Origin: an uncultured Clostridia bacterium
Lineage (GTDB): Bacteria; Bacillota; Dehalobacteriia; UBA4068; JAAVYR01
Assembly: GCA_946562005.1 (NCBI GenBank)
Contig: CAMNVD010000002.1
Span: 1 to 38,701, forward strand
Reading direction: 5' to 3'
DNA length: 38,701 nucleotides
Shown: positions 12,798 through 26,670 of the stretch, piece by piece
Layout: each line of letters begins with the position of its first letter
Numbering within the stretch: position 1 is the first letter of the stretch
Made by a program: the position numbers and the translations under genes
The notes under the pieces: generated by a model
The model's database searches: none
Told to the model about the DNA's origin: nothing
The model's input: the letters and a program-made list of their open reading frames with translations, nothing else

Positions 12798-12873
12798 GCC
12801 GCAGTAGCTCAGTAGGTAGAGCGCTACCTTGGTAAGGTAGAGGTCACCGGTTCGACTCCGGTCTGTGGCTCCA
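12798..12873 (+). tRNA. tRNA-Thr (anticodon GGT)
   Basis: Manual cloverleaf: acceptor GCCGCAG/CTGTGGC, D arm GCTC/GAGC, anticodon stem CTACC/GGTAG with loop TTGGTAA, T arm ACCGG-TTCGACT-CCGGT, and an encoded CCA. Confidence 0.95.
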
Positions 12874-12962: not shown

Positions 12963-13079
12963 ATTAGCTGGTTAGAATCGTTTTGTTTTGGTAGATGCTT
13001 TGCTTTGCAGGCGGTCGAGGGCTTCAAGTCTTCGGATAGATTGAAGTAAATATGGCCTAAAAAAATAGGCTGTTGCTCT

Positions 13080-14842: not shown

Positions 14843-15023
14843 AAAAGATACCCCCCTTTGTTTTCATATATTTTATGAATGAGGGATTGTCTCTTATGAC
14901 AGAAGAACTGGGGTATAGTTTTGCTGCATAGGTAATCCTCCTTAAAAAATCATTCTAAGAAACAAATACCCAGGAAGGGGGCAAAACGGAATACCACGAT
15001 ACGCCAAAAACCGGGAGCGCCAA

Positions 15024-15056
15024 TAAAAAAATGACGAGAACAGGAAGGTTCTCGCC
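15024..15056 (-). terminator. Rho-independent terminator of the RT operon
   Basis: The minus strand reads ggcgagaaccttcctgttctcgtc followed by attttttt. It lies about 200 nt downstream of the RT stop codon. Confidence 0.65.
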
Positions 15057-15260
15057 ACGAAAAATTATAGATGGGCTGGTAGAAATTGGTTTAGTCAAGT
15101 GTTTGGATTGTCGGAAAGTTTTTAGGAGTAGCCTAAGATATGTTTTGAGATCCTGTGGATTTTAATACGTTAGTTGGAAACTGTTAGAGACTCTTTACTA
15201 ATTATGGGATAGCTTAAAATAGTTTTATGATTATCGCTTGAAATGCTAGAAACAGGAGGA

Positions 15261-18200
15261 TTATTCTTTGTTTTCTACATATTCTCTAAGGTAGTCAAAT
15301 ACTTTACCCGGTATTTCTGTATTTGCAATCACATTAATATTTATTTTTACTTCAGAGGAAAAGAAGTTATCAGAAATCGAATTTAAATATTTCTTTAATG
15401 CCGCAAATTCTTTTAGCAGGTATCCATTTTTTATAGTAAACCATTTACAAAGAAACATGCATTCGTGTTCTTCGCAACAACCCTTTTGATCACATGCAAT
15501 AATGATTCTGGGCGTATCTTGTCTATTGATTTCATTTTTGATCGTTGATACATATTTACAGTGTCTCTTTTTAACTGTAGTTGTTTGAGACATTAATACA
15601 TTTACGGTTAATTCTAAATTTTCAACGATTGATCCTTGACGCAAAGAGCTTTCTGTTTCGCTTGTATTATTCGTGGGGTTATAATTTACTGAAATTTGAC
15701 AACTATCTGTAATTAAATGGGATATCCAGTGAAATCGTGATATCTCGTTTAGATTGGCAAGGTTATGATTTAAAATTATATTTGAAATGCGATATCTGTT
15801 CATATCAGCTAAGTCACTAAGTCTCAAGATAATTTTAATAAATTTTTCATTTATTAATGATTCTTGTCCAATCGATTTAACAGTGTAAATATCAGATGTA
15901 TCATAACCGTGGGCTTCAGAAACTCTAGCAATAAACTCTCGCATTTCTGGATTAAGAAAACAAAGTTCTGGAAATTTTCTGATTTCTTTCCCGCTATTTA
16001 TTGCATGATTGTTTCTTATATCATTTTCAAAAAAACCATCAATTTTTTCATATGCGTTATACAGTGCATGCAGTTTGTTTTCTGTTTTGTTAGAGTCAAG
16101 TTGTAATTTTAAATCTGTATAGATTTGTTTTGCTTCTAAACTTTTTCCTGTATAAAATTTATCGGTATGTGGCAATGATACCATAGATATATCATGCAAA
16201 TAACATGCGGCAAATAAAATAAAGTAGTCTTGTTGCTTTAATTTGAAATAAGAAATTGCTCGTATCCATTCAATCGAACGATGAATAAGAGTCACTGCAT
16301 GTTCTTGGTTGTGTAGCGTATAGAAATATAAATGCTTTGATCCATTTTTCCAAGTGTCACAACAGTATTTGTGGGTTAGAATTAGCTGGTCAATTAAATC
16401 TATCTTGCCAACAAATGTTTTGAAAATATGCATTACCTGTAGGAGTGAATAATCTGCCACACTGCAAAATTCATCTTGCGTATAATTAGGATATTTTTTA
16501 ATGAAGTCTTCAAAACTGAACTGAGAATTTCTTAATGCTGATAAAACTCGTATTTGTGCATATTGGATGGGTTGTCGACCTTGTTTTGCAAAAGAGAACT
16601 GATCAGTTAAATCATATTCAAAGATATAGGAAAAGACTGCATTAAGAAGTATTCTAATTAATACATCAGATTTAGCTTGTATATATTTACTACAATCAAA
16701 CAAATATGGGAACATATCTTTAAATAAATTTTCTTTATTTTTCTCAAGTAAGCCTTTGAATTTTTCCCACTTTAGCTCATTTTTTTGTTTGCGGGCACTG
16801 TAAAAATGAGAAAATAATTCGGGGAGGATATCCTCATATAAATCACTGGAATAATAATTCAATTTGTTATCCTGATAACACTCACATGTTTTTTGGAGGT
16901 ATGAATGTTTTGTGTGATTATCGTGAATATGTTCTGCTAAACTTTTTACAGCACTAATTAAATCTTTATTACTAGAGCAATCCTCTGCACAACGTCTGAG
17001 TACAAAATGTATACTTGAAGCTAAAATATCATCTGTGTATTTTTCATGAAAAGATTTAATATAATCAGAACCCTTTCTTAATGTTATGTCCTCAATCACT
17101 TTAGCGGATAGATTTTTAATATCCCCGCTTTCCTGATAGGATAAAATAGTTTCGCGATATTTAAAGAATTTCTGATATCGTAGTAATTTTTCTTTATATG
17201 TTTCTTGATTTTCCAGAGTATTGATGCGTTCCAGTTCATTGGAGATGATTTTAACTATGCTGCGGGTTCGACTAAGTAACATTGGGATTTCGTTTTCTGA
17301 AAAAATGGTATGCATATCAAAATTAATATTAGATGTTTCTCTGCTTAGTCCATGTAGATATATTTCACCACTATTTTCTTTAGCATCTGGGATAGTAGAG
17401 AATGTGCTTTTCAGTTCTTCATGTACTGAAATTCCAAAGTCGTCATCTCGATAAGGGTAATCCTTTGGAAGTTGTAGAGTATAATTATTGGAATTTAATA
17501 GTTGTTTTTCTTTAAGGCAAATATTCTCATTTAACTTTGTAATACAATCTTTAAATTCTGTCTCATTCAGAAAATTATTAAGTCCGTTTGTGAATATGAC
17601 AGAATCATCTACATAGAATACCATTTCTCCGGGAAATATTTTTTCATATTGCTTTTTCACCAGTAGCATGTATAAATTAGCTAGAAAATAGGTATGTGGA
17701 AGTCCTTGAGGAAGTCCTTTTGCATAGTTGCAACAATCGGAAAAAGCGGATTCTTCTTTATTTAGATACCAACTAATTTCTTTTTGGTCGAGTTTGCATA
17801 ATTTAAACACCATCAGTTTTTCTAAAATGGTTTGAACGGTTAAGTCATCTTTCCAAGATAACGGCAGCTTGTTGTAAATTAAACGGTATAAGATTTTGGG
17901 ATTAATTGAAGGGAAAAAGTTTTTTAAATCTAGACTGACTTCATATTTATATTCTTTGGTTTCGCTATATTTTGAAAGGAATTCATTTGCTGTTGTGGTG
18001 TATTTTTGATACTGTTCCCGCCAAGGCACAAATAATTGTTTACTGTCATAAGAAACGATATTTCCATAAAAATTTGAAGGAAGTTGCCTGCTTAGTTCCG
18101 ATGGCAGGAGTTTTTCCTTTTGATTGAAATCGTATACTAAAACCTGTAACATCGCAATCATTGCAATTTGATCAATTAGTGAGGCGGTGTGTAAGGGGCG

Positions 18201-18485
18201 GAATATTGTTTTGCCTTCTTGATATTTTTTTGGCTTAAAATATACAGTTATTTGAAAAAAATCAGTTTTATCATCCAAGATTTGGCATAGCCGTTTACGT
18301 ATTTTTTTAATATTTTCTTCGATATTTTTTGTATTAAAAATTCGTTTCAATTTTGTTAGTTCTTCTTGATCATCTTGTGATAATAAATCCCTATTTTGGA
18401 CATAGGAATTAACTAAGTAAATTGCAAGAAATATATTTTGATCAGAAAGAAGCTGTTCTCTGATTTCTAGCTTTTGCATACTCAT
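15261..18485 (-). CDS. Reverse transcriptase fused to a helical middle region and a C-terminal HD-domain phosphohydrolase/nuclease (~1074 aa)
   Basis: RT motifs: FRPLHTASLIDQIAM (motifs 1/2), SLDLKNFFPSI (A), GLPQGLPHTYFLANLYM (B) and FYVDDSVIF (C; YVDD = nt 17615-17604). HD motifs: NQEHAV, CYLHDIS (HD = nt 16196-16191), NNHAINSG, SEAHG and LRLSDLADMN. The ATG at 18485 behind a GGAG SD is preferred over the TTG at 18503. Confidence 0.85.
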   Translation of the reverse strand: MSMQKLEIREQLLSDQNIFLAIYLVNSYVQNRDLLSQDDQEELTKLKRIFNTKNIEENIKKIRKRLCQILDDKTDFFQITVYFKPKKYQEGKTIFRPLHTASLIDQIAMIAMLQVLVYDFNQKEKLLPSELSRQLPSNFYGNIVSYDSKQLFVPWREQYQKYTTTANEFLSKYSETKEYKYEVSLDLKNFFPSINPKILYRLIYNKLPLSWKDDLTVQTILEKLMVFKLCKLDQKEISWYLNKEESAFSDCCNYAKGLPQGLPHTYFLANLYMLLVKKQYEKIFPGEMVFYVDDSVIFTNGLNNFLNETEFKDCITKLNENICLKEKQLLNSNNYTLQLPKDYPYRDDDFGISVHEELKSTFSTIPDAKENSGEIYLHGLSRETSNINFDMHTIFSENEIPMLLSRTRSIVKIISNELERINTLENQETYKEKLLRYQKFFKYRETILSYQESGDIKNLSAKVIEDITLRKGSDYIKSFHEKYTDDILASSIHFVLRRCAEDCSSNKDLISAVKSLAEHIHDNHTKHSYLQKTCECYQDNKLNYYSSDLYEDILPELFSHFYSARKQKNELKWEKFKGLLEKNKENLFKDMFPYLFDCSKYIQAKSDVLIRILLNAVFSYIFEYDLTDQFSFAKQGRQPIQYAQIRVLSALRNSQFSFEDFIKKYPNYTQDEFCSVADYSLLQVMHIFKTFVGKIDLIDQLILTHKYCCDTWKNGSKHLYFYTLHNQEHAVTLIHRSIEWIRAISYFKLKQQDYFILFAACYLHDISMVSLPHTDKFYTGKSLEAKQIYTDLKLQLDSNKTENKLHALYNAYEKIDGFFENDIRNNHAINSGKEIRKFPELCFLNPEMREFIARVSEAHGYDTSDIYTVKSIGQESLINEKFIKIILRLSDLADMNRYRISNIILNHNLANLNEISRFHWISHLITDSCQISVNYNPTNNTSETESSLRQGSIVENLELTVNVLMSQTTTVKKRHCKYVSTIKNEINRQDTPRIIIACDQKGCCEEHECMFLCKWFTIKNGYLLKEFAALKKYLNSISDNFFSSEVKININVIANTEIPGKVFDYLREYVENKE

Positions 18486-18506
18486 TTTTCTTCTCCTGTT
18501 CAATTT

Positions 18507-19010
18507 TTATATTTGTAATAGCTGTTTTATTATCGCTATCAGATCTTCGTCGTTGATAGAATCAAAAATATTAAATTCCTGTTCTCCGTATCGAAGCGTG
18601 ATGATATTATTTGCTTCTTTGTCAGCATCTGTTTTAATTTTTGCATCTTTTGATAAATGGCATTCGTTATCTGTTAGGTTCATTTCCCAAAAGTTATTGA
18701 GTATGATTACTGGGGGTGTCATATCGTTTTTTCTTTCCATTCGTTCAGAAAATTGGGAAAGCGTCTTTTTGAATTTTGTTACAAATTCAATTAAAACCTT
18801 CCTTTTTTTTGTGCACTCATCGAAAAAATCTTGAAAGTCCTGGTTTTTTTGAACCAAAAAACTAGGAGTATAGTGATAGGCGGGGTCCATTTTATATAAA
18901 TAGTATGAGAATAATTCAATATAATCTGCTATTTCGTTATTATGTTTCTGGAAGTTATTGTCTGTAGAAAAAAGTTTTTCTAGAATATTTAAATCGGATT
19001 GCTTTGTCAT
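18507..19010 (-). CDS. 167-aa hypothetical protein, first gene of the RT operon
   Basis: ATG at 19010 sits behind GGAGACAAA. The ORF-track TTG at 19058 overlaps the promoter -10 and is rejected. The stop lies 21 nt before the RT ATG. I recognise no motif. Confidence 0.6.
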   Translation of the reverse strand: MTKQSDLNILEKLFSTDNNFQKHNNEIADYIELFSYYLYKMDPAYHYTPSFLVQKNQDFQDFFDECTKKRKVLIEFVTKFKKTLSQFSERMERKNDMTPPVIILNNFWEMNLTDNECHLSKDAKIKTDADKEANNIITLRYGEQEFNIFDSINDEDLIAIIKQLLQI

Positions 19011-19057
19011 TTTGTCTCCATTTTCTATAGTTGTAACATTAAATAGCTTTTGAAACA

Positions 19058-19087
19058 ATCATACCAAAAGGATAGCTGTTATTTCAA
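19058..19087 (-). promoter_or_regulatory. Sigma-A type promoter of the RT operon
   Basis: On the minus strand: TTGAAA (19087-19082), an 18-nt spacer, then an extended -10 TGgTATGAT (TATGAT = 19063-19058). Confidence 0.5.
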
Positions 19088-19161: not shown

Positions 19162-19242
19162 CTGTGCTTGCTACTTTTAAATTTAGCTAATTTTAGAGCT
19201 ATGATTAGGTAGTAACGATAAACTTTAGTGTTTTCTACATAA

Positions 19243-19280
19243 TAAAAAGACTCACACTTTTACGGTGTGGGTCTTTTTAT
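19243..19280 (-). terminator. Hairpin terminator after the XRE/heptad-protein operon (A/T runs on both sides)
   Basis: agactcacac / gtgtgggtct stem (one wobble) flanked by aaaaa and ttttt. Confidence 0.65.
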
Positions 19281-19284
19281 TTCT

Positions 19285-19794
19285 TTATGCCCTTTTCAGG
19301 GAAACAACATGTTGTTCTAGCTTATCTATTTGCTGGTCGTGTTTGTCCAAGCGAGGCAATATATCTTCTACGATTTTTTCATGGTCTCGGGTGTCAGCGT
19401 CAAAGAGCACGTCTAGTTTCTTACCATGTTCAACTTCCATACGAGCCACAATTTGACGAGTGGATTGAACATCTTCCTTGACTTCTTTCATATCTGCATT
19501 TAATCCGGTAACATCATTCTTTAAACCAACGATATCTTCTTTTACTTCGCTCATATTCGTTTTTAAAGAAGTAACATCATTCTTCAAACCAACAATATCC
19601 TCTTTTACTTCACTCATATCTGTTTTTAAAGAAGTAACATCTGATTTTAAATCGGTAACATCCTCTTTTAAAGAACTAACATCTTTCTTTACACCGGACA
19701 AGTCTTTTCTCATATCAGCGATATTTTGTTCCATTTTATCAAAGCGCTCATCCATCTTGTTTAATAATTGCGCCAACATCTCTTCCTGGTTCAT
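19285..19794 (-). CDS. Heptad-repeat coiled-coil protein (169 aa)
   Basis: About 12 consecutive heptads of the D[VIM]xxLK type: KDLSGVK KDVSSLK EDVTDLK SDVTSLK TDMSEVK EDIVGLK NDVTSLK ... Its start is coupled to the upstream stop (TAATG overlap at 19794). Confidence 0.7.
   Translation of the reverse strand: MNQEEMLAQLLNKMDERFDKMEQNIADMRKDLSGVKKDVSSLKEDVTDLKSDVTSLKTDMSEVKEDIVGLKNDVTSLKTNMSEVKEDIVGLKNDVTGLNADMKEVKEDVQSTRQIVARMEVEHGKKLDVLFDADTRDHEKIVEDILPRLDKHDQQIDKLEQHVVSLKRA
19508..19633. repeat. Two tandem 63-bp repeats (~90 percent identical by eye) inside the coiled-coil gene
   Basis: Units 19508-19570 and 19571-19633 both read gtaacatcattcttYaaaccaacRatatcYtcttttacttcRctcatatYYgtttttaaagaa. 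Degenerate 21-bp units continue on either side. Confidence 0.8.
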
Positions 19795-20168
19795 TAGAAT
19801 TCCTCCTCGTCTATCTCATCTATGCGGTTAAGCAGCGTGCTTTGCAAATAGGTATCTATCAAGTCAGCTAATACTGCAATATGATTTTCTGGTAGGTCTG
19901 CCATCTTGGCGTTGATTTCTTGTAGTACCAGAGCGTAATCAGCGTAGAGGCTGTCCATCAGCAGGGCGTCTGCCGGTATATTTAATGTTTCTAACAACTT
20001 CATAAAATTAGATAATGTCGGCACTCGTTTGCCGTTTTCCAGTAAAACAATAGTGGTGCTAGTAAGACCTGCCAGTGCTGCTAAATCTTTTACCAGTAAC
20101 CCTCGTTTTACTCGTTCTGCCTTTAATCGTTCTCCAAATGCTTTGGTATCAAAATAGTTTTTTGCCAT
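19794..20168 (-). CDS. XRE-family HTH transcriptional regulator (124 aa)
   Basis: FGERLKAERVKRGLLVKDLAALAGLTSTTIVLLENGKRVPTLSNFMKLLETL is an HTH_3 motif. Confidence 0.8.
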   Translation of the reverse strand: MAKNYFDTKAFGERLKAERVKRGLLVKDLAALAGLTSTTIVLLENGKRVPTLSNFMKLLETLNIPADALLMDSLYADYALVLQEINAKMADLPENHIAVLADLIDTYLQSTLLNRIDEIDEEEF

Positions 20169-20180
20169 AATACTTTTCTC

Positions 20181-20522
20181 CTAATCCTGTTTCGCTACAT
20201 TGCTAATGTAGGTGGAGATAATATCAGATAGATTTTTCAACTCATTAGGCGTTAATTTATGGATATCTGTCTGGAAGGGCTTTAAGGCATTTATGTATTC
20301 TTGTTCTTCAGGTATGTCGCTGCCTAGCAATATGCTATTGGCGTTTACTTTGAAAATATTTAAGAATTTAATCAAAGTTACCAGACCGATTTTTACCCTG
20401 CCCTGCTCAATGCCGTACCAATAATTGTCGTTTATGTTCAATTCTTCGCATAATTGTGCGATTGTCATTTGGTTCTTTTTTCTGGTTTCTTTTATTCTTT
20501 GACCAATGGCGACCATATCCAT
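20181..20522 (-). CDS. XRE-family HTH transcriptional regulator (113 aa)
   Basis: IGQRIKETRKKNQMTIAQLCEELNINDNYWYGIEQGRVKIGLVTLIKFLN is an HTH_3 motif. Confidence 0.8.
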   Translation of the reverse strand: MDMVAIGQRIKETRKKNQMTIAQLCEELNINDNYWYGIEQGRVKIGLVTLIKFLNIFKVNANSILLGSDIPEEQEYINALKPFQTDIHKLTPNELKNLSDIISTYISNVAKQD

Positions 20523-20704
20523 GATTTTTATTACCGCCTCTATAGTTAATTCACTTATAGTCTACTTGCTGTGAGAAAAATGTATAATGAAGTAATTATT
20601 TATTGCATTAACTATAGATGAGAAAAGCATTGATAATTTTTTATATATCTGATATATTTATGGTAGTAAATTTGTTTTGGGGAAAATTTTGGAGTGTGAA
20701 TTTC

Positions 20705-21103
20705 ATGGAAGAATTAGTTGTCAGCGAAACAGCAGGAAGATGCATTGCTAATCTTGCGGAATTGATAAAGCAGGAGAACCGTAGCGTTGGAGAGGCTCGG
20801 GATTTGGTTGAGGAACATCAACGGCTTTGGCGAAAAATTAGGGAAGTGCTTGGCTCTGATGTAATGTTGCTAGAGTATGCAGCTTTTACTGATACAGAAA
20901 TTTCCTTCTTTGACCTGAACAAAGCATATTTGGCAGGAAGGTTAGCAAAGCTGGATAGTGTTGCAAAAGAAGAAGCCTATGTTATGCATATTGAAGATAT
21001 TAAAAAAGGCGAAACATATAACGAGGCTAGAGTGGCATTAAATAGTGTGTTTGAACGAATTTTACCGCTTTTGCATACCGAAATACTCAAGGATGATATG
21101 TAG
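20705..21103 (+). CDS. Hypothetical protein (132 aa), divergent from the XRE operon
   Basis: The ATG at 20705 behind GGAGTG is preferred over the ORF-track start at 20618. The product looks helical and acidic, with no recognisable motif. Confidence 0.5.
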   Translation: MEELVVSETAGRCIANLAELIKQENRSVGEARDLVEEHQRLWRKIREVLGSDVMLLEYAAFTDTEISFFDLNKAYLAGRLAKLDSVAKEEAYVMHIEDIKKGETYNEARVALNSVFERILPLLHTEILKDDM

Positions 21104-21500: not shown

Positions 21501-21860
21501 TCAATCTATCCGGTTCGGTTCGCCAAACCGTTGAAAGTGTACTACTTCTCTTTCCCGTAAATAGCGAATGACTTTGTTCACATCTGGATCATCAGAAACC
21601 CGCAAAATATTTTCATAGGTGACACGGGCTTTCTGTTCTGCAGCTAAATCCTCTACTAAATCAGCAATAGGGTCGCCTTTTACAGCGATGGCCATGGCAT
21701 CAAATGCTTGACCTGCAGCGGCGGCAGGATATACGCCTTTGCCGTGGTCGATATAATAGGGCGCAAGTGGGGTCCCTTCTATATCAGAATCTTTCAAGTT
21801 TTTGGTTAATTGGTGAACAATAGTACCGACCATCTCCAGGTGGGCCAGTTCTTCTGTACC
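21501..21860 (-). CDS. cotJC: cotJC 3' segment (manganese-catalase-like spore coat protein, C-terminal ~119 codons; split gene)
   Basis: The frame reads GTEELAHLEMVGTIVHQLTKN...KGDPIADLVEDLAAEQKARVTYENILRVSDDPDVNKVIRYLREREVVHFQRF. This aligns with the B. subtilis CotJC blocks I recall (IGTEEFAHLEMI...KGDPIADL...EEKAR...FLREREIVH). No start codon or N-terminus is present upstream. Confidence 0.85.
   Translation of the reverse strand, partial: GTEELAHLEMVGTIVHQLTKNLKDSDIEGTPLAPYYIDHGKGVYPAAAAGQAFDAMAIAVKGDPIADLVEDLAAEQKARVTYENILRVSDDPDVNKVIRYLREREVVHFQRFGEPNRID
21852..21860. repeat. Left copy of the 9-bp core TTCTGTACC (candidate att core)
   Basis: Identical to 26479-26487. On the coding strand it reads GGT ACA GAA (G-T-E) in the cotJC frame at both copies. 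Confidence 0.7.
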
Positions 21861-22054
21861 TATAGAAATGGCAAAATGGGCAACGACCGCTTTCTGCCGG
21901 CAGTTGGAAAATTTGTCTTGTTTTTAGGGTCAATCCCTCGCACCTTGGGGACAAACTTTTCATATAATACATTGATGAAGAAAACTAGCGCTATTTCTCT
22001 TTCATCTCTATTTATCTTCCCGTTCCGGATAATAATTTGATTGGAGGGAAAGGA

Positions 22055-24576
<2,522 letters not shown>

Positions 24577-24616
24577 ATCTTAAATAAATGAAGATTTCCT
24601 TGGCTTAACATAGAAA

Positions 24617-24659
24617 ATGCAGGCTGCTCTATCTACGGAGTAGCCTGCATTTTTATTTT
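24617..24659 (+). terminator. Rho-independent terminator after the collagen-like genes
   Basis: atgcaggctgctc / gagtagcctgcat stem (one mismatch) followed by a T-run. Confidence 0.75.
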
Positions 24660-24724
24660 GGACATAGAAAACCGTCTTCTTCATAGAATAAAAGCAGAAC
24701 CATAAGAAATATGAGGCGATTTTT

Positions 24725-24913
24725 ATGTTCACCTTTATTCAATTGCAAACACAGCCGGCGAGGGAACTGTTTTTCTATAAAGAAAACGGAACCTTTTGCG
24801 CCTTGGTCGAGAAGGCGCTGCTATTATCTTTATATGAGAGAAAGTTAATATCCACAGAAGTATACCAACAATGTCTCTATTTAAAAGGAAAGGAATGGGG
24901 CGATTTTGATTAA
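24725..24913 (+). CDS. 62-aa hypothetical protein overlapping the recombinase start (candidate accessory factor)
   Basis: ORF MFTFIQLQTQPARELFFYKENGTFCALVEKALLLSLYERKLISTEVYQQCLYLKGKEWGDFD. It overlaps the recombinase start by 8 nt. Confidence 0.45.
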   Translation: MFTFIQLQTQPARELFFYKENGTFCALVEKALLLSLYERKLISTEVYQQCLYLKGKEWGDFD

Positions 24914-26447
24914 GGCGGCGGCTTATTGTCGGGTATCTACTGAAAAAGACGAACAGCTTAATTCTCTAGCCAATCAACAGCAGTTTTTTCGCCATTACAT
25001 AGAAGGGCGCCCTGATTGGGAGTTAACAGATATCTATGTAGACGAGGGAGCTTCTGGTACTGCTGTGGGCCATCGTCCAGGTTTCTTAAAAATGCTGGCG
25101 GCGGGAAAAGCTGGTGAATTCCAGATTTTACTTACCAAAGAAATCAGCCGTTTTGCCCGTAATACATTAGATAGTATCTACTATACCCGCAAGCTAAAGG
25201 AATGGGGTGTCGGTGTTATTTTCCTCAATGATAATATTCATACTCTGGACCCTGATGCAGAGTTACGCTTAACCATTATGGCTTCTATTGCCCAGGAGGA
25301 AAGCCGCAAAACCTCTGAACGGGTAAAGTGGGGGCAGCGGCGACAGATGGAAAAGGGCGTTGTCTTTGGTCATGGTCTCCTTGGTTATCAGTTACAGCAG
25401 GGGCGGCTGGAGATAGAAGAAAGCGGTGCGGCCATCGTCCGGCAAATCTTTGAAAAATATGCCTGGGAGCAGAAGGGGGCATCTGTCATTGCCCGTGAAC
25501 TGACGGAAGCAGGGATTCCCACGCCAAGTGGAGGACAGGGATGGTCCCATAATGTGGTATTGAAAATCTTGAAAAATGAAAAATACATGGGAGATTTGGT
25601 GCAAAAAAAAACCTATACCCCTAGTTATCTCACGCATAAAAAGAAAATCAATCAAGGGGCGGAACCTTTGGTTATCTTGGAACAGCATCACCCGCCTATT
25701 ATCTCTCCAGAGCTCTTTGCTGCTGTTGCGGCAATTCTTGCGGAACGAGGGAAAGGGCAGAAAGAGGGGCGTCGTTATTCCCGAAGTTATTGTTTCTCGG
25801 GAAAGCTCTACTGCGGACAGTGTGGCAGTCGGTTGGTGGCGCGAACCAAGAAAAAAGGAGAGCACGTCTATCTATATTGGCAGTGCTATGCGAAAACAAA
25901 AAAAGGTAGCGCTATCTGTCCTAGTGCCACCCTGAGTCAGTCTTATTTGGAGCTAGTCATTTTACAGGCTATGAGAGAGGTTATGGCTTTGGTGGGACGG
26001 GAGCCTGTTTGGCAGCAAACTATGGTAGCGTTTTATGATGGTATCAAGCAGGTCTTGCAGCGGGAGGATGGCGGTGCCCGACAGAAGGAGCAGTGGCAGA
26101 GGCGTCTATCCCAGTTGGAGCTGGAACAGCAAAAGCTACTCCATCTGCACTTGCAGGCCCATATATCAGAAGAAGTATTTCTCCGGGAAAATACGATTTA
26201 TCGGAAAAAAGTCAAAGAGCTACAAGCAAAAATAGAGAGTAGTTGCCTAACGGAGAAGGACGATGATAAAGATAAAATGGCTGCAATCATCCATAAATGT
26301 CAGGAGATTTTAACCAGTGAGGTGTTTATAGATAGCTTTTATCGAGAAATATTAGAAAGAGTGGACATAGAAGATAAAGACCGAATGACCATATATTTTT
26401 CCGGTTTCCCTTGGGGTATCCGCTACAGGGGGCCGCTGGATAGCTAG
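24906..26447 (+). CDS. Large serine recombinase (513 aa)
   Basis: AAYCRVSTEKDEQLNSLANQ holds the catalytic Ser. Also present are LLTKEISRFARN, a recombinase domain, a zinc ribbon (CGQCGS...C...C) and a C-terminal coiled coil. TTG start. The stop lies 32 bp from the right core repeat. Confidence 0.9.
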   Translation: MIKAAAYCRVSTEKDEQLNSLANQQQFFRHYIEGRPDWELTDIYVDEGASGTAVGHRPGFLKMLAAGKAGEFQILLTKEISRFARNTLDSIYYTRKLKEWGVGVIFLNDNIHTLDPDAELRLTIMASIAQEESRKTSERVKWGQRRQMEKGVVFGHGLLGYQLQQGRLEIEESGAAIVRQIFEKYAWEQKGASVIARELTEAGIPTPSGGQGWSHNVVLKILKNEKYMGDLVQKKTYTPSYLTHKKKINQGAEPLVILEQHHPPIISPELFAAVAAILAERGKGQKEGRRYSRSYCFSGKLYCGQCGSRLVARTKKKGEHVYLYWQCYAKTKKGSAICPSATLSQSYLELVILQAMREVMALVGREPVWQQTMVAFYDGIKQVLQREDGGARQKEQWQRRLSQLELEQQKLLHLHLQAHISEEVFLRENTIYRKKVKELQAKIESSCLTEKDDDKDKMAAIIHKCQEILTSEVFIDSFYREILERVDIEDKDRMTIYFSGFPWGIRYRGPLDS

Positions 26448-26478
26448 GAAAATTTTATTTTTTTCTTCATTTTAGGCA

Positions 26479-26487
26479 TTCTGTACC
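26479..26487. repeat. Right copy of the 9-bp core TTCTGTACC
   Basis: Identical to 21852-21860. Confidence 0.7.
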
Positions 26488-26670
26488 GATATCGGTCAGT
26501 AACCCTTTGCAAACGTCATCGGTCATAGAATACCGTTGCGATAAGTAGCGAAGGGAAGCGGCAAGCTCCCCGTCCGGTCCGCCATATTGGCTAATGATGT
26601 AGCTAGCCAAAGCAGGATTTGGGTTTTTGATATTGATGGGAAACTGTAATTTCTTTTCATATTGCCACAT
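26479..26670 (-). CDS. cotJC: cotJC 5' segment (N-terminal 64 codons; split gene, runs into element DNA and stops at 26467)
   Basis: MWQYEKKLQFPINIKNPNPALASYIISQYGGPDGELAASLRYLSQRYSMTDDVCKGLLTDIGTE matches the CotJC N-terminus (MWVYEKKLQYP...QYGG.DGELAA.LRYL.QRY...LLTDIGTE). Three foreign codons (CLK) and a stop follow. Confidence 0.85.

Follow-up and report, generated by a model that had tools for sequence, protein, structure and literature searches.

The closest characterized relatives of the system described here are DRT1 and DRT11, which are defense systems built on fusions of a reverse transcriptase (RT) to a nitrilase. Both belong to class 3 of the UG/Abi RTs. The DRT1 and DRT5 proteins make DNA without a template, and a protein serves as the primer (NSMB 2026, PMC13275509). 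In DRT1 (UG1), cryo-electron microscopy and biochemistry identified the priming residue as Ser402, which lies in a disordered insert, and the protein-DNA adducts drive a poised tetrameric or filamentous state; the system requires the active sites of both the RT and the nitrilase, and it shows an abortive-infection phenotype (PMC13275509). The numbering of these systems now reaches DRT11, which is UG5. DRT11 from Sinorhizobium meliloti (UG5-large) is a single gene in a defense-rich mobile region, its phenotype resembles abortive infection, it needs both RT and nitrilase, and it has no detected non-coding RNA (ncRNA) (PMC13436386). Between the RT and the C-terminal domain, all class 3 RTs carry an extension of unknown function (PMC9226505). 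Another class 3 group, UG24, has a predicted C-terminal phosphohydrolase (COG3294) and not the nitrilase of UG1, UG5, and UG29 (Mestre et al. 2022, NAR, PMC9226505). Mestre et al. described two variants of UG24, one with a DnaG-type primase (cluster 192) and one with accessory clusters 1299 and 1808; they predicted a defense role by inspecting individual loci, and UG24 was outside the set of systems that they assayed (PMC9226505). Here we describe a UG24 operon from an uncultured Clostridia bacterium. It lies in a stretch of 38,701 nt (contig CAMNVD010000002.1), which we will call the window.

The operon encodes a large protein of 1074 amino acids and, just upstream, a small protein of 167 amino acids (Table 1). 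An earlier note, which was made from the sequence alone, proposed this pair as a candidate for a new type or subtype of RT-based defense system. Instead, the pair falls cleanly within UG24. The large protein matches PADLOC's RT_UG24 profile from end to end (E = 0, 1077 bits; residues 7-1071 align to positions 3-1035 of 1036). Its next-best match in PADLOC is to Drt1a, with just 44 bits and across the RT core only (residues 145-284); the secondary matches also include RT_UG6, which, like Drt1a, is in class 3. The small protein matches RTas1299 (E = 4.6e-7, residues 14-82), and it is in one family with upstream genes from other loci that score up to 1.1e-65 against this profile. Because of the full-length match to RT_UG24 and the match to RTas1299, and because Mestre et al. 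already give this architecture (PMC9226505), we assign the operon to UG24 as a two-gene member and not as a new type or subtype. Other features of the group are also present: the large protein has over 1000 residues, a helical region links the RT to the effector, the C-terminal domain is of the phosphohydrolase kind, and the RTas1299-type gene is upstream. The earlier note had called the system uncharacterized, which is fair: the family to which it belongs has been catalogued, and experimentally it is uncharacterized.

Within the large protein, the earlier note had recognized the core RT motifs in the N-terminal third, a helical middle region, and an HD-superfamily signature that is followed by a Cys/His cluster. 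All of these are present. The RT motifs in the translation are FRPLHTASLIDQI, LDLKNFFPSI, GLPQGLPHTYFLANLYM, and FYVDD; the HD motifs are NQEH, YLHD, NNH, EAH, and LSDLAD; and the Cys-rich string is HCK...CDQKGCCEEHEC. Profile searches with Pfam and PADLOC support both domains. Pfam's RVT_1 matches residues 167-307 (E = 1.5e-8) and HD-CE (PF24391) matches residues 722-937 (E = 2.5e-24), and the NCBIfam scan gave a weak match to the phosphohydrolase model PRK10119. (We searched the literature for the meaning of the name "HD-CE" and found nothing relevant.) The Pfam and NCBIfam scans found no nitrilase domain (CN_hydrolase) in the large protein.

We used two alignments of the large protein with its homologs, with 18 and 33 sequences (41-63% identity). 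In the RT domain, R96, P97, H99, D186, G257, P259, Q260, G261, P263, Y291, V292, D293, D294, and S295 are invariant, as are H729, H764, D765, H827, H859, D891, and D894 in the HD domain. Near the C-terminus, C1013 is invariant in both alignments, while conservation is 90% or more at C976, C1004, and C1009. We also compared the C-terminal 390 residues from 29 loci that represent all three architectures (see below) and that are as little as 32% identical, and the same His/Asp set and the four Cys were invariant. H729, H764-D765, H827, H859, and D891/D894 are candidate metal ligands, and the four invariant Cys suggest a structural zinc site in the C-terminal domain. The RT-HD system in the window is genuine and probably functional.

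The AlphaFold2 model of the large protein, which was built from 33 sequences, has a pLDDT of 86 and a pTM of 0.82. It shows an RT fold (residues 77-330), an all-helical region (399-714), the helices of the HD domain (717-925), and a beta-rich domain (926-1072). In the PDB, the model's fold matches are to a group II intron RT, G2L4, AbiA (8oz7), and DRT2. The top 50 fold matches of the whole model are all to RTs or RNA-dependent RNA polymerases, so the HD domain is not typed by this comparison. A profile of the full-length protein had a sole match in the PDB, which was a weak match to an RT.

That group II intron RTs are the best fold matches reflects the shared RT fold. They might also hint that the large gene is the RT of a selfish retroelement (a group II intron, a retron, or a diversity-generating retroelement) that has been misread as a defense gene, and there is a weak match to the model for group II intron RTs or maturases (TIGR04416). 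However, this match scores just 25.7 bits and the model's cut-off is 300. Rfam found no intron or retron RNA, and the repeat search found neither pairs of template and variable repeats nor any long direct repeat that involves the locus. Also, the full-length match to RT_UG24 takes in the HD domain. Given the TIGR04416 score, the Rfam results, and the repeat search, we rejected all three kinds of retroelement; they are effectively refuted, and we would be very surprised if one of them proved correct.

The earlier note also described the layout as AbiA-like. AbiA does combine an RT with a C-terminal effector and causes abortive infection, and its RT is one of the folds that the model matched. 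However, AbiA belongs to class 1 and has HEAT-like repeats together with a HEPN domain as its effector, while UG24 is in class 3 with DRT1/UG1 and DRT11/UG5. The TM-score for the match to AbiA (8oz7) is only 0.2-0.36, which is similarity at the level of the RT fold, and the Pfam and PADLOC scans found no match of the large protein to AbiA or HEPN profiles. In other words, AbiA is not a close relative of UG24. DRT1 resembles the large protein in more ways: it is in class 3 in the RT phylogeny of Mestre et al., and it is a single large polypeptide that starts with an RT and ends with a hydrolytic effector. Its effector is a nitrilase, as is that of DRT11, whereas UG24 has an HD phosphohydrolase. 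Also, DRT1's frequent partner is a transmembrane protein, and UG24 instead has a conserved small partner.

To see how the operon compares to other members of UG24, we collected homologs of the large protein and found at least 554 proteins (E of 1e-5 or better). These are mostly from Firmicutes of the gut or of bioreactors, including Pseudoflavonifractor, Lachnospiraceae, and Clostridium botulinum. We fetched 80 of the 378 confirmed metagenome loci, as well as 4 loci from genomes and 6 from IMG/VR, called open reading frames (ORFs), and searched them with hidden Markov models (HMMs). In every locus with enough upstream sequence, the gene directly upstream, in the same orientation as the RT, encodes a partner, and it usually overlaps the RT gene or is a few nucleotides away. 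The partner is of the RTas1299 type in 80 judged loci and is a protein of 225-246 amino acids with the same Tyr motif in 5 loci of the primase variant. In two seeming exceptions, the RT genes are frameshifted, and the partner is present there too. Thus, both the profiles and the loci support the earlier note's view of an RT that is fused to an HD-superfamily domain and accompanied by a conserved small partner.

The operon does differ from the non-primase variant of Mestre et al. in that RTas1808, which they reported alongside cluster 1299 (PMC9226505), is missing. We found no match to RTas1808 or to RTasDnaG-like among the neighbors in the window, and when we searched the whole window with an HMM built from homologs of 1808, the best E value was 3.3. 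In 33 of the sampled loci, a third gene of about 287 amino acids is at position -2 relative to the RT, and this is PADLOC's RTas1808 (E = 1e-134). Half of the judged loci (38 of 76) lack RTas1808, which makes it a variable accessory rather than a part that defines UG24. In 5 IMG/VR loci, the order is an RTasDnaG-like gene, an unknown gene of 225-246 amino acids, and the RT. If the RTs are grouped at 60% identity, then all members of a group share one architecture: 18 of the 25 groups have two genes, 5 have three genes, and 2 are of the primase type. The window's RT and its nearest relatives (loci L001-L013, 43-52% identity) all have the two-gene form. Because most of the groups and all of the nearest relatives are like this, the lack of RTas1808 here is normal. 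Of the architectures in the sampled RT clades, the two-gene form is apparently the most frequent, and it is not a novelty of this locus.

Two other observations concern the distribution and the neighbors of these architectures. First, tblastn against isolated phages and plasmids gave no match, and IMG/VR yielded only six distant loci, five of which are the primase variant. This variant is in IMG/VR contigs L087-L092 (for example, at 2337-7557 of L088), and its protein at position -1 has the motif N..[YF].Y...[YF][LF]. Second, in one clade with two-gene systems (L014-L020), a gene at position -2, preceding the partner, encodes a protein of 552-562 amino acids with Schlafen AlbA_2, HATPase_c_4, and winged helix-turn-helix domains (at least 6 loci). 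This AlbA_2 protein has weak matches to PADLOC models for systems that are associated with prokaryotic Argonautes and to models of the CARF type.

An exhaustive profile search for the family of the small partner found 211 representatives (at 50% clustering), and nearly all of these are stand-alone proteins of 150-200 amino acids. In four metagenome proteins (P0153, P0154, P0172, and P0189), the partner's N-terminal 75-130 residues are joined to fragments of RT-HD proteins or to a neighboring gene. We considered whether the long members of the family might be informative fusions and rejected this, as they look like chimeras from assembly or like products of internal deletions in the operon, and they tell us nothing about function. 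Members of the family tend to be mildly acidic (median pI of 5.5), and the family motif is FS.Y(L/I)...(N/D).(D/A)Y.YN.T(Y/F)L...F..F. Across 136 representatives, and using the window's numbering, Y47 is 100% conserved, S35 and N48 are each 96% conserved, Y45 and L52 are each 95% conserved, F59 is 94% conserved, and K69 is 90% conserved. At residue 48 (nt 18867-18869), the window's own protein has Thr after the invariant Tyr47; Asn is found at this position in 96% of representatives and Thr in about 2%.

The AlphaFold2 model of the small protein has a pLDDT of 73.6. Its N-terminal half is helical, its C-terminal half is a small beta/alpha unit, and Y45-Y47 is in a predicted loop (residues 42-48) between two helices. 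The model has no significant fold match in the PDB or BFVD (every E value was above 0.1), and scans of the small protein against Pfam, NCBIfam, and PHROGs gave nothing. We also used hhalign to compare RTas1299 to the -1 protein of the primase variant. The alignment is not significant overall (probability of 2%, P = 0.024), and its sole aligned segment is the Tyr motif, which is NHHFKYGFGYF or NKNFHYNFGFF in the primase variant. A relaxed pattern for this motif is found in only 12 of the 5313 other ORFs in the loci. These results are suggestive, post hoc, of every UG24 architecture keeping a partner with a Tyr motif beside the RT.

What does the system do? The earlier note saw the setting of the operon as typical for defense cargo, and for the homologs, defense genes are indeed found alongside. 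Their neighbors include type I restriction-modification genes, AriA (from PARIS), AbiLi, PtuA (from Septu), GajA (from Gabija), Old, and GmrSD. For example, in Clostridium botulinum CP027778.1 (L094, 3843397-3862654), which is a cultured and completely sequenced isolate, a two-gene UG24 system (7406-11258 of L094) adjoins hsdRMS. The 200-amino-acid partner in this locus overlaps the gene for the 1085-amino-acid RT-HD protein, which is 54% identical to the window's, and the system is flanked by an HNH_4 gene on one side and by DUF5677 and hsdR, hsdM, and hsdS on the other.

Alternatively, the operon might be an addiction or maintenance module, with the HD protein as the toxin and the small protein as the antitoxin, which would stabilize the 8.5-kb element that carries it or would act in the element's excision or replication. 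The operon is the cargo of a serine-recombinase element with no other defense gene, and a small upstream gene that is tightly coupled to a large enzymatic gene is a layout like that of toxin-antitoxin pairs. However, the homologs are in very different vehicles: a serine recombinase is nearby in only four sources, two of these being the window itself and an identical copy of the island. (For the same reason, we rejected the idea that serine recombinases are the general vehicle for UG24.) Also, the homologs are often beside restriction-modification and Abi genes, which is the signature of defense cargo, and the catalytic residues of the RT are strictly conserved, which a simple toxin would not need. 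The distinction is not sharp, as abortive-infection systems often resemble toxin-antitoxin pairs, but overall we consider an addiction module to be rather unlikely.

Another question is whether the RT copies an RNA. Many defense RTs are described as working this way. As in retrons or class 2 DRTs (DRT2, DRT9, and DRT10), an ncRNA might be encoded in the flanks of the operon, and the cDNA would then drive defense. There is room for an ncRNA in the 202 untranslated nucleotides that separate the stop codon of the large gene from the terminator. However, this 3' untranslated region (UTR) is predicted to fold no better than shuffled sequence (z = +1.16) and is not conserved in other loci, and the flanks of the operon are not conserved in any non-identical locus. 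Rfam found nothing relevant at the locus except for sub-threshold "leader" matches at 19.1-19.3 kb, which look like terminators. Furthermore, the class 3 RTs that have been tested are template-free (PMC13275509), and no ncRNA was seen for UG5 (PMC13436386). Templating by an RNA therefore seems quite improbable to us. Because there is no candidate for an ncRNA here and because the tested class 3 RTs are template-free, untemplated and protein-primed synthesis is the most likely activity of the RT.

As for the effector, two-metal HD phosphodiesterases (such as the HD domain of Cas3, HD-GYP proteins, and PgpH) have the ligand set H...HD...H...H...D, while dNTPases of the SAMHD1 type have H...HD...D. 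Because UG24 conserves the former pattern, unlike the SAMHD1-type set, we favor cleavage of a phosphodiester bond in a nucleic acid or a nucleotide as the predicted activity of the HD domain.

On balance, we think that the best explanation for the operon as a whole is a UG24 defense system in which untemplated, protein-primed synthesis controls an HD effector, and we would give it somewhat better than even chances. By analogy to DRT1 and DRT11, the RT would make short stretches of DNA with no RNA as the template and with the hydroxyl group of a protein as the primer. The protein-DNA adduct would keep the enzyme in a poised oligomeric state until phage infection frees the C-terminal effector. 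The effector would be an HD hydrolase, and the pattern of its six conserved His/Asp positions suggests a two-metal phosphodiesterase that acts on nucleic acid or nucleotides; the outcome would be abortive infection. The small partner would be an obligate subunit that regulates or senses, or that supplies a priming tyrosine.

Several observations weigh against this explanation. The similarity in sequence between UG24 and DRT1 is confined to the RT core, and the effectors are of different kinds (HD in UG24, nitrilase in DRT1), so the transfer of the mechanism is an analogy. In DRT1, the priming serine is in a disordered insert of 97 residues (382-478), while the model of the UG24 protein has no such insert, and only 4 of its residues have a pLDDT below 50. 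DRT1 and DRT11 do not need a small partner. Searches of the PDB for a solved relative of the HD region, with phmmer and with a profile of 29 sequences, found nothing meaningful. No other recognized defense system is present in the island or among the operon's immediate neighbors in the window. Finally, our literature search found no experimental work on any member of UG24 or on any DRT with an RT-HD fusion.

Because the model lacks a disordered insert, and because the partner is strictly coupled to the RT and has an invariant tyrosine in a loop, priming might instead occur in trans. The partner would be a protein primer, with untemplated DNA synthesized on Y47 in an exposed AY.Y(N/T) loop, and an adduct like those of terminal proteins would gate the HD effector. 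The adduct would then be on the partner, whereas in DRT1 it is on the RT itself. We consider this version unlikely. If it is true, then a primer protein that acts in trans would be a feature that unifies all of the UG24 architectures, given that the -1 gene of the primase variant has the same Tyr motif.

ORF calling places both genes of the operon on the minus strand, with the large ORF at 15261-18503 and the small ORF at 18507-19058. If counted from the ATG at 18485, the large gene encodes 1074 amino acids, and from the ATG at 19010, the small gene encodes 167 amino acids. As the earlier note stated, the gap between the two genes is then 21 nt. Each ATG is preceded by a GGAG ribosome-binding site. 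Translation of the small gene probably starts at the ATG at 19010, because the TTG at 19058 falls inside the -10 element of the promoter. This promoter, with TTGAAA and TGgTATGAT separated by 18 nt, is the best-ranked promoter-like site in the region that we scanned for the consensus, and an intrinsic terminator follows the large gene; both had been picked out by the earlier note. Since the operon has its own promoter and its own terminator, and since another terminator separates it from the gene upstream, it is a self-contained transcription unit, as far as the sequence can show.

Table 1. Features of the UG24 operon and of the island that carries it (positions are in the window)
Feature	Start	End	Strand	Evidence or details
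Mobile island, 8.49 kb	13027	21518		Break in blastn synteny with L093, split reading frame, dip in GC content; absent from L093
Left terminal inverted repeat	13033	13051		19 nt, 89% complementary, 8442 nt apart from its partner (repeat search)
Large serine recombinase of the island	13080	14633	-	Pfam Resolvase, Recombinase, Zn_ribbon_recom
Intrinsic terminator of the operon	15031	15058	-	11-pair hairpin, then a T-run
3' UTR of the operon, 202 nt	15059	15260		Between stop codon and terminator
Large gene (RT_UG24), 1074 amino acids plus stop	15261	18485	-	Full-length PADLOC match, AlphaFold2 model
C-terminal beta-rich domain with four conserved Cys	15264	15674	-	Strands in the model (E926-1052); C976, C1004, C1009, C1013
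HD-CE phosphohydrolase domain, residues 722-937	15675	16322	-	Pfam PF24391; HD dyad at 16191-16196 by translation
All-helical middle region, residues ~399-714	16344	17291	-	DSSP on the model
RT fingers/palm domain, residues ~77-330	17496	18257	-	Pfam RVT_1, model; YVDD at 17604-17615 by translation
Small partner gene, 167 amino acids, RTas1299 family	18507	19010	-	PADLOC match and position upstream of the RT
Y45-H-Y47 of the small partner (motif core)	18870	18878	-	Translates to YHY
Promoter of the operon	19058	19087	-	TTGAAA, 18-nt spacer, extended -10 TGgTATGAT; 10/12 matches, with TG
Separate strong terminator	19241	19281		Between the operon and the gene upstream of it
Island genes upstream of the operon	19285	20522	-	XRE-type helix-turn-helix at 20181-20522 and 19794-20168; 169-amino-acid coiled-coil protein at 19285-19794
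Right terminal inverted repeat	21494	21512		Pairs with 13033-13051

The operon is the cargo of a mobile island. The window's housekeeping proteins have relatives at 90% identity or above in a Peptococcaceae metagenome-assembled genome (MAG), and a contig of this MAG (L093) is syntenic with the window (about 81% nucleotide identity by blastn) and lacks the island. The insertion point is inside a cotJC-like gene for a Mn-catalase, on the minus strand. In L093, the cotJC-like frame is continuous across the island junction and ends with ...REREVVHFQRFGEALDRLQSKAATKPKRF and a stop codon. In the window, the piece that ends with ...HFQRFGE is at 21501-21833, and the remainder, EALDRLQSKASTKTKRF and a stop codon, is at 12972-13026, so that the junction is HFQRFGE / ALDRLQSK. 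The earlier note had observed by eye that the operon is more AT-rich than its surroundings, and this is correct: the GC content is 0.30-0.32 across 15-19.5 kb, as compared to 0.40-0.44 on the left side and 0.47-0.57 beyond 21.5 kb.

Besides the UG24 operon, the island encodes a serine recombinase, a 54-amino-acid ORF, a coiled-coil repeat protein, two XRE regulators, and a 161-amino-acid protein. The XRE regulators, which the earlier note had seen beside the operon, are confirmed by Pfam. The note's description of the island as bounded by recombinases was imprecise: there are two serine recombinases, and the island is mobile, but the recombinases belong to two adjacent elements, with one in each. 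The second element, at roughly 21.8-26.4 kb, cuts this cotJC-like gene at another point, further upstream (after ...TDIGTE), and L093 shares it with the window.

The insertion of the island is reminiscent of the intervening elements of sporulation genes, such as skin, SPbeta in spsM, and gin in gerE (PMC5595907, PMC4191935). The shared features are a large serine recombinase, insertion into the coding part of a spore-coat gene, and an intact junction in a relative. Like the elements that we compared it to, the island ends in terminal inverted repeats. It differs in its cargo, which is a DRT-type system. Among the papers that we listed on such elements, we came across none that names cotJC as a target.

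Several other features of this region are described here for completeness. The window's cotJC-like gene is in three pieces on the minus strand (12972-13026, 21501-21833, and ~26450-26650), as it is cut by two separate elements. In L093, it has the second interruption only, with pieces at 14843-15322 and 19953-20165, and CotJB and CotJA follow. The second element (~21834-26447) includes two genes of the exosporium type with BclA-like collagen repeats (22037-23197 and 23200-24576), whose GC content is 0.53-0.57, and its recombinase is at 24906-26447. A tRNA-Thr(GGT) gene at 12798-12873 on the plus strand is ~100 nt from the C-terminal remnant of cotJC and ~150 nt from the left end of the island; the insertion is in cotJC, not in the tRNA.

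Within the island, the 169-amino-acid coiled-coil protein has tandem repeats of 63 nt (21 amino acids) at 19471-19701, of the type D/E-V-x-x-L-K, and its gene is co-transcribed with the two XRE regulators. We considered whether these genes might be parts of the UG24 system and rejected this: they are found only in identical copies of the island, and they have their own terminator (19241-19281). A 15-nt inverted repeat (20539-20553 and 20604-20618, 93% complementary) lies in the 95-nt intergenic region between the divergent genes for an XRE regulator (20181-20522, minus strand) and the 161-amino-acid protein (20618-21103, plus strand). This repeat looks like the operator of a switch for the island in the style of cI/Cro.

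Overall, this locus does not define a new system, and running PADLOC labels it at once. What is new is that, in the loci that could be judged, the partner is always directly upstream of the RT and carries, in a predicted loop, a Tyr that is 100% invariant; that the two-gene form is the commonest among the sampled RT clades; and that the operon is the cargo of an 8.49-kb island in a cotJC-like gene. The island would be a case in which a defense system travels on an element that has split a spore-coat gene. More broadly, among the class 3 defense RTs, only the UG24 branch uses a phosphohydrolase instead of a nitrilase. Our analysis provides several handles on it, namely a minimal two-gene architecture, the homolog from C. 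botulinum (CP027778.1), the catalytic residues, and the invariant tyrosine of the partner. Learning how the RT controls the HD enzyme would tell us whether the logic of DRT1, in which a DNA adduct regulates a fused effector, is general.

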